IMG/VR virus record: IMGVR_UViG_3300000973_000003 | Span: 793 to 64,792 of that record | DNA: 64,000 nucleotides | Source: a virus | Taxonomy: Duplodnaviria > Caudoviricetes | Direction: 5' to 3' (one strand) | Part shown: in pieces, positions 1 to 19,221 of the stretch | How positions within the stretch are numbered: the stretch's first letter is position 1 | Layout of the letters: every line of letters starts with the position of its first letter | Made by a program: the position numbers and the translations under genes | Notes under the pieces: model-generated | What the model was told of the DNA's origin: nothing | Database searches by the model: none | Seen by the model: only the letters and a program-made list of their open reading frames with translations

Positions 1-645
1 TTCGTGGCTTTTGGTGCAACGATCTTTAACGGGTTCGGGCATACATGACGGCTTCGCCCAGATAATGTCCTGTCGTAGCCACCATCCAGCTTCTTGCAGA
101 GCGAATGCAGTTCTCCAGGGTATGCCGACCATATCCTTACGCTTGAGTCCGTCGATCTTCTTATTGACTGCGAAGACCTGTCCGTTCCTCCCTTCTGGGT
201 GCTTCTTGTCTTTCATTTCAGTTCCTTTATGTCCTGTGCCACAGTATGAATCACCGAGGTTTAGCCACAATGTTCCTTGAGGTTTGAGTATTCGTCGGAC
301 TTCTTCAAAGATCAACACCATGTTCTTGACATATTGTTGAGGTGTCGGTTCAAGCCCAAGCTGCCCGAACCAAGCATCACACTTGGTACAGAATGCTTGT
401 TCCTGTGGAGTCCAATAAGCAGACTTGAGTTGTAGTGAGTTGTCATTGTTTCGAGTGTTCTCGCTCGGCCTGGTGAATCCCTCCCATTCGCATACGCAGT
501 TTGGATCACCGCCCCACTTCATGCCGTTGCCTCCGTAGTCCCTAAGACCCCAATATGGAGGGCTGGTCACGCAACAATCAACGGACTCGTCTGGGAGCTC
601 CTTCAACGTATCAAAACAATTCCCTATGTGGACTTCGTATGACAT
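1..645 (-). CDS. N4-cytosine/N6-adenine DNA methyltransferase (beta class), truncated by window edge; missing from the ORF track
   Basis: Manual translation from ATG at 645 (TAATG overlap with the upstream gene): MSYEVHIGNCFDTLKELPDESVDCCVTSPPYWGLRDYG...RILKPQGTLWLNLGDSY...WWLRQDIIWAKPSCMPEPVKDRCTKSHE. Has the SPPY catalytic motif; open for 215 codons to base 1. Confidence 0.92.
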   Translation of the reverse strand, partial: MSYEVHIGNCFDTLKELPDESVDCCVTSPPYWGLRDYGGNGMKWGGDPNCVCEWEGFTRPSENTRNNDNSLQLKSAYWTPQEQAFCTKCDAWFGQLGLEPTPQQYVKNMVLIFEEVRRILKPQGTLWLNLGDSYCGTGHKGTEMKDKKHPEGRNGQVFAVNKKIDGLKRKDMVGIPWRTAFALQEAGWWLRQDIIWAKPSCMPEPVKDRCTKSHE

Positions 646-2183
646 TACAACCACCCTAATTCTTGTTGTTGGGGTGCTTCTGTCCGAGGAATGCGATTGA
701 CAAGCTCAATACCTTCACCAATCCATCTCATGACAGGAACGGCCATCGAATTACCCATAGCCTTGAATCTATGACTGTCGGGACACTTCTCTTTGGGCTT
801 ACCTTTCCAGGGTATTTGAGTCCAATTATCGGGGAATCCTTGCAGTCTTTCGCATTCGATAGGTGTTAGCCTACGAACTACGAGATTATGATCCATAATT
901 GCATGACGGTCATTTTTAGTGAGAGTATTCGCAGGGTCGCCTTCGTTGCCTACGCCCAAACCGTTGCCTTTCCCTATGGACTTCTCGCCATTAAGACCAG
1001 ACCACCTGGTAGCTTGGTCGTGAATAGGAATTGGTTCTTGCGCTACTGCTGGTGAAGTTGGTACTAAGCCGTTAGCTTTGAGAGTCGGTGATACGCCTTC
1101 ATAGACGACTGCGTTCTGTCCGAATGTATGGTCGAAGCAAATGTTGTTTTTCTGTGCCACCAAAGGAACATTACCGCCACCTGTGCCGTATTTAGCAGTC
1201 ATTGTAGGGGCTACATCAACCTCCTTTATCCGTGAGTCAGCTGCATGATTCTCGAACATGACTGCTGGAGCTCCATGACCTTGAGCTGTTCGTAAAGCAC
1301 AATGCACGTCGCCTGTTTCTTCTTGATTAAATAAATCAATAGCGACAGGAATGATGTTGCCTCCATTCTGTGAACCAAGTTGCACATCAGCACCTTTCAT
1401 CCACTTTGCTGCTACGGTGTCTGCTACTTCTGGAACTAAAGCTGCATGAGTATCAATCGTTTGGTTGCCGTAGCCTCCCCTGTGGTAAATCTCTGTTGTC
1501 AAAGCACCAGCAGGTTGAGGATCGAGAATGGTATTCATTCCTCTTCGTCGGCTACTCTCACCAACGCTGCTTCGAGCATCGGTGGTAGCTTCTTTTCCCT
1601 TCGTCGGGCGCGTCGGAGGATTCCCCGACAAGCCCTCTGGCTCAAATAGAACCGCTGCGGAACGTCGCCAATCTCCATCAATATGTCCGACAACAAACAC
1701 CCTTCTGCGTCTTTGGGGAACTCCGAAGTATTGAGCGTCAAAAATCCTGTAAGCGCACCCATACCCGATGTTCTCCACTTCTCGGAGGAAGGCAGCAAAA
1801 TCCCTTCCATTGTCCGATGACAGGAGGCCAGCGACATTCTCGAAGATGAACCATGTTGGCTGAATCTCTTCAACAATTCGTAAGAAGTGGAGGGCAAGGT
1901 TGCCACGTGGATCATCCAATCCAAGTCTTCGCCCTGCAACCGAGAAGCTTTGACAGGGTGAGCCTCCAACAATAAGTTCGCATTTTCCTTTGTACTGTTT
2001 CCAATCATGTTTCGTTACATCTCCTACATTTGGTACATGGGGGAATTGATACTTGAGAACTGCGCTTGGAAACTCATCGAACTCTGCAAACACTTGGGCT
2101 TGCCAATTCTTCATGTGATACCAAGCGACAGAACAAGCTTCAACCCCAGAAAAGAGGCTGATATACCGAATCTCTTCGCCCAT
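645..2183 (-). CDS. C5-cytosine DNA methyltransferase with a long variable region
   Basis: Motifs I (SLFSGVEA), IV (GGSPCQSFS), VI (FENVAG), VIII (QRRRRVFVVG), IX (RRLTPIECERLQGFPD) and X (KAMGNS). Likely start is ATG 2183 after a GGTGA SD. Confidence 0.95.
   Translation of the reverse strand: MGEEIRYISLFSGVEACSVAWYHMKNWQAQVFAEFDEFPSAVLKYQFPHVPNVGDVTKHDWKQYKGKCELIVGGSPCQSFSVAGRRLGLDDPRGNLALHFLRIVEEIQPTWFIFENVAGLLSSDNGRDFAAFLREVENIGYGCAYRIFDAQYFGVPQRRRRVFVVGHIDGDWRRSAAVLFEPEGLSGNPPTRPTKGKEATTDARSSVGESSRRRGMNTILDPQPAGALTTEIYHRGGYGNQTIDTHAALVPEVADTVAAKWMKGADVQLGSQNGGNIIPVAIDLFNQEETGDVHCALRTAQGHGAPAVMFENHAADSRIKEVDVAPTMTAKYGTGGGNVPLVAQKNNICFDHTFGQNAVVYEGVSPTLKANGLVPTSPAVAQEPIPIHDQATRWSGLNGEKSIGKGNGLGVGNEGDPANTLTKNDRHAIMDHNLVVRRLTPIECERLQGFPDNWTQIPWKGKPKEKCPDSHRFKAMGNSMAVPVMRWIGEGIELVNRIPRTEAPQQQELGWL
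1535..1915 (-). CDS. Nested alternative-frame protein resembling the M.EcoHK31I beta polypeptide (start uncertain: 2008, 1915 or 1837)
   Basis: ORF lies wholly inside the C5-MTase gene in another frame: SSEKWRTSGM...TLNTSEFPKDAEGCLLSDIL...VPQRFYLSQRACRGILRRARRREKKLPPMLEAAL. Resemblance is from recall of the family, not a search. Confidence 0.55.
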   Translation of the reverse strand: MIHVATLPSTSYELLKRFSQHGSSSRMSLASCHRTMEGILLPSSEKWRTSGMGALTGFLTLNTSEFPKDAEGCLLSDILMEIGDVPQRFYLSQRACRGILRRARRREKKLPPMLEAALVRVADEEE

Positions 2184-2225
2184 ACTTTCACCCATAAAGA
2201 ACACCCATATAAATGTCCTTACAAA

Positions 2226-6217
<3,992 letters not shown>

Positions 6218-6240
6218 ACTTACACCCAACAAGAACCGCA

Positions 6241-6246
6241 TTATAA
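6241..6246 (-). promoter_or_regulatory. Archaeal TATA box for polB (leaderless)
   Basis: TTATAA 23 nt upstream of the ATG. Similar spacing at 12452-12457 and 62458-62463. Confidence 0.65.
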
Positions 6247-18044: not shown

Positions 18045-18433
18045 TCTGCCTCAACCTCCGCTAAGAGATTAAGAAGTACGGCTATTTTTTGCATTTTGTC
18101 TAAGTCCTCCATCTGGGCGTAAGCTGCGAACTCAACATAGCGAGGGCATGAATGATTTTCGTCGTTTGATCCATACTCTTCACGGTTGCACCAGCAACAT
18201 TCGAGTTCTGGGGGGCAGGGGTCGGAAACATACCCGACCAAAGGAGAAACGACCCCCGCCTTGAATGAAACAGAGTCGGTGAACTTTTCAAGGTATGCAC
18301 TACGCATGGTGCGTAGGTGATAGCCTACGTTCTGGTGATTCTTGTCACCGAGAGCAATTGCTATGTCTTTCTGCTGAAGCCCATGACTTCGTAGGTATCG
18401 TATCATCATTTTCTTTTGTTTAGTGTTCATCAT
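18041..18433 (-). CDS. HTH DNA-binding protein
   Basis: YLRSHGLQQKDIAIALGDKNHQNVGYHL. Confidence 0.7.
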   Translation of the reverse strand: MMNTKQKKMMIRYLRSHGLQQKDIAIALGDKNHQNVGYHLRTMRSAYLEKFTDSVSFKAGVVSPLVGYVSDPCPPELECCWCNREEYGSNDENHSCPRYVEFAAYAQMEDLDKMQKIAVLLNLLAEVEAE

Positions 18434-19221
18434 AACCACTCCGATTTATCCCCATCCAGAACTGATTGAGCAACCTCTTCGGACAGCTCATGAGCCACGA
18501 CAGATCGAAGGGCGTTGCCCTTGATGCCTTGCGTTCCTGTGCTCATGCCTCTTCGAGCAACGATATGACAGGGGTTGCCTTCGTTGTCTTTAACGAACTC
18601 TCGCCCGTCTGGGAGTATGATAGTGCCGACCCTGTTTGAACGGTTCTTGCATTCGGGGCGGGGTCGCCAGGAGTCGGGGAACTTACCCCATAGGTCAGTA
18701 GGTTTCATTCGATCTTCACCATACTTGCAGTAAGTAATTTTGTGGTGTTGTAAGTGATCCAATAGTGGTAGCTTGCGAAGGATGCCGACAGGGTTCTCAA
18801 TCCAATAGTATTCGGGGTTGAGCCATTCGATAACCTTCAATGTATGCTCAACCAGCTGCACCGCTAACCGCCCTTTGTCGCTCTTAGGTGTGCGTGTACC
18901 GTCTGGTGCTGGTGCATTCCAATGGTGGCCGCATGACGCAACCGAGAAGCCTGTGCAGGGTGGAGAAGCCCACACCACTTTGACAAGACCATGACGTTTG
19001 ATGAGTTCCTTGCACCACTCTTCGTCAATGTCAAGAATTGATATGACATGATCTTCAATGTAGTGGTGTAGTTGCCTGGCTTCTTCATTGACCTTGCCGT
19101 TCATCTCAACTCCGATAACTCGAAAGCCCAACTTCACGAAGCCTGATCCACCGCCACGCAGACCGCTAAACAAATCAATGCAAAGGTCGCCTGTGGTTTC
19201 TGGTTCAAACGGATAACTCAT
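18430..19221 (-). CDS. Short C5-cytosine methyltransferase-like protein
   Basis: IDLFSG (motif I), WASPPCTGFS (IV), IENPVG (VI), YCKYG...KPTDLWG. Confidence 0.85.
   Translation of the reverse strand: MSYPFEPETTGDLCIDLFSGLRGGGSGFVKLGFRVIGVEMNGKVNEEARQLHHYIEDHVISILDIDEEWCKELIKRHGLVKVVWASPPCTGFSVASCGHHWNAPAPDGTRTPKSDKGRLAVQLVEHTLKVIEWLNPEYYWIENPVGILRKLPLLDHLQHHKITYCKYGEDRMKPTDLWGKFPDSWRPRPECKNRSNRVGTIILPDGREFVKDNEGNPCHIVARRGMSTGTQGIKGNALRSVVAHELSEEVAQSVLDGDKSEWL

Follow-up and report, generated by a model that had tools for sequence, protein, structure and literature searches.

M.EcoHK31I of E. coli HK31, a C5 cytosine DNA methyltransferase (MTase; YGGCCR), consists of two chains, both of which are needed, and its beta chain is encoded wholly inside the alpha gene in another reading frame (Lee, Kam and Shaw 1995, as summarized in PMC2836561 and PMC3404938). 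The alpha chain has been described as devoid of motif IX, which the beta chain supplies (PMC2836561, PMC3404938), and N-terminal deletions of 42-67 residues in the small chain leave some activity (PMC2836561). M.AquI (CYCGRG) is a split C5 MTase (PMC3404938), and a different arrangement, an out-of-frame HNH insertion, is known from phage methylases (PMC11855218). Here we analyzed an open reading frame (ORF) nested in a C5 MTase gene within a 64,000-nucleotide stretch of viral DNA (the window; positions 793 to 64,792 of IMG/VR record IMGVR_UViG_3300000973_000003). Our results confirmed, at the level of sequence, that this nested ORF is a real protein-coding gene under selection. They further suggested, with what we would put at slightly under an even chance, that a very large and mostly viral C5 MTase clade, including this probable archaeal virus and the dmt gene of coliphage P1, is made up of obligate two-chain enzymes, in which the segment found directly after motif VIII in every one-chain enzyme has been displaced to the +1 frame, across motifs IV-VIII. 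In a literature search we found no published account of the nested family; only work on EcoHK31I and AquI and the unrelated HNH insertion surfaced. The two genes and the main-frame motifs lie as follows.

645..2204, minus strand: main-frame C5 cytosine DNA methyltransferase gene, 519 aa, C-terminus ..QQQELGWL (ORF list)
1535..2008, minus strand: nested ORF, 157 codons plus stop, MIGNSTKEN...VRVADEEE, wholly within 645..2204 (ORF list)
1535..1915, minus strand: shorter nested form of about 126-127 codons, from a second in-frame ATG at +14 codons relative to PCQ
1950..1958, minus strand: main-frame motif IV, PCQ, residues 83-85, with catalytic Cys84; the nested frame reads ..EAHPVKAS..
1701..1715, minus strand: main-frame motif VIII, QRRRR, residues 164-168; the same bases give nested ..SEFPKDAEG..
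828..875, minus strand: main-frame motif IX, RRLTPIECERLQGFPD, residues 444-459, outside the nested gene
732..755, minus strand: main-frame motif X, GNSMAVPV, residues 484-491

The main-frame protein matched PF00145 with E=3.9e-58 (197.8 bits, cut-off 22), and also TIGR00675 and phrog_116. Its motif order was complete for a C5 MTase of PF00145, with I, IV, VI (ENV, residues 122-124) and VIII followed by a long variable region of about 260 residues and then by IX and X. The nested ORF is in the +1 frame relative to this gene, with an offset of 196 nt, and spans main-frame codons from about 65 to 222, thereby covering motifs IV, VI and VIII plus about 55 codons further. An earlier note on this DNA had given the nested gene as 1535-1915; its coordinates and quoted peptides were correct, the 1915 end being the second ATG, which was also found in close relatives. 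The same note had stated that the main frame retains its own motifs IX and X, and both were located at the residues listed above. Nearly all relatives had an ATG close to the 5' boundary of the open frame. Upstream of the ATG in the window we found one candidate ribosome-binding element, whose bases are also those of conserved main-frame Gly-Asp codons.

2021..2024, minus strand: GGAG, Shine-Dalgarno-like, ending 12 nt 5' of the nested ATG (read directly; candidate only)

To what extent could an open frame of this kind arise by chance? The +1 frame of the window is free of stops for 159 codons, the next +1 stretch being 56 codons and the longest +2 stretch 43. When the gene was shuffled among synonymous codons, an equally long +1 stretch appeared in 5 of 1000 shuffles (p=0.005). 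When eight other loci of 41-51% GC were shuffled likewise, p was 0.001-0.023, with 0.06 for L016. It is conceivable, and in our view very improbable, that no protein is made here, and that the open frame and its conservation are a by-product of main-frame constraint, of codon usage, or of an RNA or DNA element. Part of the shuffle analysis agrees with this explanation, as in any gene the +1 frame tends to have rather few stops (at 41-51% GC, the mean over shuffles was 70-99 codons) and the GC-rich relatives L011-L013 were not significant individually. Nested conservation over motifs IV-VIII could likewise follow from the main frame.

The position of the open frame is a stronger argument than its length. 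With the main-frame protein as the sole query, we retrieved 16 viral loci, whose main-frame identity was 33-92%. The +1 frame was open over the same stretch in all 16, in most cases beginning about 17-19 codons ahead of PCQ and ending about 60-68 after QRRxR; the exceptions were two GC-rich loci in which it is open from about 22-27 codons after PCQ, one in which it opens far upstream, and one in which it is ended by the contig edge. Further loci were retrieved using long forms of the nested protein, and the frame was open in 99/99 scorable related loci over a GC range of 0.34-0.70, so that a search for stops in the nested frame of homologues, which the earlier note had proposed as a check, turned up none. 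The frame ended 56-75 codons past QRRxR in 95 of these 99, and in the other four (L056, L088, L089 and L100) it continues into the region of the target-recognition domain (TRD) and motifs IX and X. As a control set we took C5 MTase genes with PF00145 from 201 genomes of one phylum. In contrast to the related loci, none of the 24 scorable control genes was open, each having 1-15 stops in the +1 frame across the same stretch. The open frame is thus specific to the clade and not a general property of C5 MTases. These observations argue against a by-product without a protein, since the frame is interrupted in ordinary C5 MTases that share these motifs, the position of the stop is fixed, and the frame is open for 234-448 codons in three loci of 34-44% GC from metagenome-assembled genomes (MAGs).

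Selection on the nested frame was assessed first by synonymous codon use in the main frame, taking the fraction of sequence pairs with the same codon at columns where the main-frame residue is identical. This fraction was 0.47 before the overlap, 0.43 after it and 0.41 over motifs IX-X, compared with 0.64 inside the overlap and 0.81 in its last 52 codons. The per-column median was 0.69 in the overlap versus 0.43 (Mann-Whitney p=1.8e-13), and the 5' part of the overlap was likewise raised (p=1e-7). Suppression of synonymous variation in the main frame, another check named in the earlier note, was accordingly seen across the overlap. Conservation of the two proteins told the same story from the other side. 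Among 14 loci, main-frame identity in the motif blocks IV-VIII was 0.57-0.82 versus 0.23-0.52 for the nested frame, and the relation was reversed in the last 35-40 codons or so, with 0.59-0.73 for the nested frame versus 0.20-0.50 for the main frame.

1538..1642, minus strand: last ~35 nested codons (YLSQRACRGILRRARRREKKLPPMLEAALVRV...), nested conservation greater than main (frame-by-frame identity)

Over codons 24-58 past QRRxR, identity in 52 non-redundant loci was 0.53 for the nested frame and 0.30 for the main frame; nested GILRRA alone reached 0.83, and the main frame overlapping it (GNPPTR in the window) 0.39. These results show that the nested frame is under purifying selection independent of the main frame. 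Against an open frame without a product, nested amino-acid conservation is highest exactly where main-frame conservation is lowest, and codon identity there is up to 0.81. Together, the conserved open frame and the synonymous constraint support what the earlier note had read from one sequence, namely a dual-coded gene inside an MTase that has all of its motifs. The gene pair represents two conserved protein segments on shared bases under double constraint.

The nested family has near-invariant residues at W78, G82, L106, S107, L110, L122, A126, C127 and G129-R133, among others. For a C-terminal part of the nested protein, a counterpart was found in ordinary enzymes.

1598..1726, minus strand: nested residues 95-137 (SEFPKDAEGCLLSDILMEIGDVPQRFYLSQRACRGILRRARRR), homologous to the post-motif-VIII segment of one-chain C5 MTases

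When the nested family was compared with ordinary MTases by hhalign, SEFPKDAEGCLLSDILMEIGDVPQRFYLSQRACRGILRRARRR aligned with FEFPHPLPKTVKVGDILESF--PDAKYTISDRLWQGHLRRKAEH (probability 70%, E=4e-5); the pattern of the canonical post-VIII segment is FxFP...L.DILE...V..KYYLS.K... As an independent check, a hidden Markov model (HMM) was built from nested C-termini alone and used to score 24 ordinary enzymes together with 960 shuffled decoys. All 960 decoys were outscored by six of the 24 enzymes, and for the majority of the 24 the top match fell 20-35 residues past QxRxR. The same model found nothing in the clade's own main-frame proteins. In agreement with this, the profile similarity of the main frame to ordinary C5 MTases covers residues 10-176 only and stops at motif VIII, after which the main frame passes AVLFExE and then an unconserved low-complexity linker. 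Judging from their sequences, low-GC relatives bridge the nested and the ordinary one-chain enzymes. In L101 and L103 the nested frame has the form L.(D/E)(I/V)LEE..DQKY(Y/F)LS, and ordinary enzymes are similar in frame; the nested-frame reading is SLLEVLEENPDQKYYLSEKA in L101 (Pacearchaeota MAG, 34% GC, +1 open 329 codons) and SLPDILEEHVDQKYFLSQQ in L103 (Saccharibacteria MAG), and L100 has a looser form, SVLEEKVDEKYHLS.

Because the C-terminus is homologous to this segment and the segment is absent from the main frame, the nested core appears to be a displaced piece of the methyltransferase and not something invented from scratch, which explains the origin of the nested gene. Since the same bases encode nested FP...LSDIL and main-frame motif VIII, two neighboring parts of one fold share a stretch of bases in two frames. 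The homology of the encoded peptide to a real protein segment again speaks against the absence of a product. We also considered the nested C-terminus (YLSQRACRGILRRA) as a copy of motif IX (RLTPIECERLQGF) and rejected it, as the profile-profile comparison with the main frame of the clade gave a probability of 0.2%. With motif IX present in the main frame and no likeness to it in the nested profile, the nested chain is not filling a motif IX gap, as the earlier note had concluded. Its suggestion of a regulatory subunit found no evidence; the post-VIII homology points to a structural piece.

On this basis we lean slightly towards a nested product that acts as a small second chain of the enzyme, docking on the main chain and supplying the missing post-VIII segment. 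We infer that the ORF is translated (from the ATG at 2008 or that at 1915), that its product binds the main chain, and that it is needed in methylation. The segment is missing from the main frame of the clade and present in the nested protein, and the nested protein is therefore its most likely supplier. The first 90 or so nested residues are loosely conserved and predicted to be mostly disordered, and are encoded over motifs IV-VIII, where main-frame selection dominates. The last 60 or so residues, which match the segment after motif VIII, would be the functional core, and this core would lie where the catalytic domain meets the variable target-recognition region. A main chain of the clade, made without the segment, would then be joined by the nested protein, which docks and provides it as a separate chain. 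In an AlphaFold2 model of the nested protein alone, two helices were confident (residues 124-136 and 143-154, pLDDT >90).

The nested protein might instead be translated and have no part in completing the enzyme, controlling MTase activity or expression, binding DNA via a basic GILRRAEKRGK helix, or targeting a host factor. We consider this unlikely. It corresponds to the accessory or regulatory role proposed in the earlier note. It would suit a main frame with a full set of C5 motifs, IX and X among them, for which a partner is perhaps unneeded, and the confident part of the model is a basic helical hairpin only. However, the conserved core has its homologue in an integral segment of one-chain MTases, exactly the one that the main frame is without; the gene was found only nested in this MTase clade; and some relatives extend the same frame into the TRD and motifs IX-X.

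In relatives such as L056, L088/L089 and L100, the main frame terminates beyond the linker, and it is the nested frame that carries on through the TRD and motifs IX-X. Database proteins were found in which the nested frame is joined to TRD/IX/X, namely P0162 (19 contigs), P0177 and P0209, and in one, P0152, the main frame switches to the nested frame. A homopolymer tract stands exactly at the junction in L056 (G10, 2940-2990) and in L088 (C7, 2180-2230), where a one-base change in tract length would toggle between a short and a long nested chain; some run-on forms may be phase variants or sequencing errors. Such joined proteins and tracts are what one would look for if the nested frame had no start of its own and were reached by a frame shift, through ribosomal or homopolymer slippage, to give a short isoform with motifs I-VIII and a canonical post-VIII segment. 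We regard this as improbable. In the window, no homopolymer tract occurs at the corresponding position. Furthermore, the frame is open for about 100 codons upstream of the required shift point and has a conserved ATG near its 5' end, and synonymous sites upstream of that point are constrained as well (p=1e-7). Finally, nested FP...LSDIL shares its bases with motif VIII, so that no single shift yields the canonical order with both.

Further forms were seen among relatives. Ordinary-looking C5 MTases with a long open +1 frame occur in MAGs at L100:2038-3385 (Aminicenantes, 39% GC), L101:1780-3150 (Pacearchaeota, 34%) and L103:2089-2976 (Saccharibacteria, 44%), the frame being open for 448, 329 and 234 codons, respectively. 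In L100 the starts of the two frames are 4 nt apart, and the second frame holds the TRD and motifs IX-X. In the database proteins P0122 and P0113 a TRD-like stretch stands in frame ahead of a nested-type domain, for which the simple nested layout gives no explanation.

Several points weigh against the nested product as a second chain of the enzyme. Its match to the canonical segment is of moderate strength (70% by hhalign) and extends over 42 columns only, and no single nested protein reaches Pfam PF00145. The AlphaFold2 model of the nested protein alone is mostly of low confidence (mean pLDDT 65.6). A model of P0177, a natural fusion of nested domain, TRD, IX and X, had a pLDDT of 58 and no usable packing; it was confident just for short helices and motifs IX-X, and with VIA-align its IX-X part matched DNMT3-type structures with Z<4 only and its nested part gave nothing usable. 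The spacing of 12 nt from the candidate GGAG to the ATG is long. The evidence for translation and for a two-chain complex is indirect, and a main chain with motifs I-X might be active alone.

The nested protein had 255 matches of similar length in a set of 5.8 billion proteins. An exhaustive search returned 3,331 clusters (50% identity) at E<=1e-3, and 982 at E<=1e-10, mostly of 150-220 aa and for the most part viral "hypothetical proteins". It matched phrog_16143 ("DNA methyltransferase") with E=2.5e-6, and searches of Pfam, NCBIfam and PDB sequences with the single protein or a profile gave no match. By tblastn, the family was found inside annotated C5 MTase genes of Roseobacter, Pseudanabaena, Caulobacter, Vibrio and Mycobacterium (Omega-like) phages, and also in P1-like dmt genes of 300-odd enterobacterial plasmid prophages. 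A search of the ESM Atlas with a homologue as query returned solely viral "hypothetical protein" clusters. The window shows the features by which the family can be recognized, that is a +1 ORF beginning about 17 codons ahead of PCQ and ending about 60-70 past QRRxR, with C-terminal LSDIL...YLS..AC.GILRRA...LP..L..AL. Within the branch to which the window belongs, the nested proteins (P0001, P0003, P0004, P0006, L001, L005, L006 and L009) share an acidic ..EEE C-terminal tail, which is not present in the wider family and is encoded in the window by bases 1535-1549, minus strand.

Outside small viruses, long overlaps between genes on the same strand are considered rare, and gene callers forbid them. 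As a consequence, the nested protein is missing from annotation despite thousands of matching clusters of predicted proteins. If our proposal is true, few long overlapping genes on one strand would be as widespread in prokaryotic viruses as this family, which annotation overlooks. It would also mean that an enzyme has been rebuilt from two products of one gene, with one stretch of DNA encoding two adjacent parts of a fold. Should the nested chain belong to the enzyme, expressing the annotated gene alone may yield an inactive or altered enzyme, and the chain would be relevant to phage defence evasion, to the interpretation of methylomes and to enzyme tools.

The virus record is complete (64.8 kb) and has direct terminal repeats. 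On the minus strand, the first 6 kb of the window hold a family B polymerase (PolB) gene and then three DNA methyltransferase genes. PolB is closest to those of haloarchaeal tailed viruses, at about 23% identity. The earlier note had placed the DNA in an archaeal virus: the PolB relationship makes an archaeal host plausible, and identity as low as this keeps it at plausible only. That note had also called the enzyme possibly multispecific, which was not borne out, as repeats within the variable region were no stronger than those of shuffled controls (best self-alignment score 32, equal to the 95% level of the null).

18430..19221, minus strand: second, small C5-like MTase, 263 aa, with PPCTGFS; PF00145 positions 3-114, E=1.3e-7

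In this small C5-like MTase there were no recognizable motifs IX or X and no nested ORF of long or comparable size. The N6/N4-type MTase (588 aa, 2226-3992, minus strand) has two diverged copies of a module visible in its translation. A short ..(E/G)WL tail is shared, all on the minus strand, by PolB (..GDTEWL, 3983-6241), the N6-type MTase (..PQAEWL, 2226-3992), the C5 MTase (..QQQELGWL, 645-2204) and the small C5-like MTase (..KSEWL, 18430-19221), and close relatives have ..EELGWL, or ..QKSLW / ..QKTLW. This tail looks like a PCNA-binding (PIP-like) tail.

The known systems nearest to the window include the unannotated phrog_16143 family (P1 dmt, Mycobacterium phage Omega, Vibrio phage CP-T1, and Caulobacter, Roseobacter and Pseudanabaena phages), with which it shares position, frame, length and the signature LSDILE..VP.R.YLS.KAC.GILRRAEKRGK.LP..L..AL. 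The window's branch differs from that family by having about 50% identity to most members, by its acidic ..EEE tail, and by its occurrence in a probable archaeal virus. The likeness to M.EcoHK31I, judged by the published layout and not by the beta sequence, is that a small second ORF lies fully inside the MTase gene on the same strand in a different frame. The earlier note had drawn this parallel, and 1535-2008 inside 645-2204 at offset +1 agrees with the published layout. The dispensable N-terminus of the EcoHK31I beta chain also fits the loosely conserved N-terminal residues, about 90 in number, of the nested protein in the window. In contrast to M.EcoHK31I, the main chain of the window has motif IX, and its nested chain shows no likeness to motif IX and matches the post-VIII segment. 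The need for two chains has been demonstrated for EcoHK31I; for the window it is a proposal. M.AquI is similar in that the enzyme is divided within or beside the variable region after motif VIII. A split like that of M.AquI, into a short alpha (I-VIII) and a long second frame (nested domain, TRD, IX and X), is found only in the window's relatives L056, L088 and L100. In the window, unlike M.AquI, a single unbroken main frame takes in the TRD, IX and X, and just a post-VIII piece of about 60 residues is out of frame, in an overlap of about 470 nt and not as two merely abutting genes.

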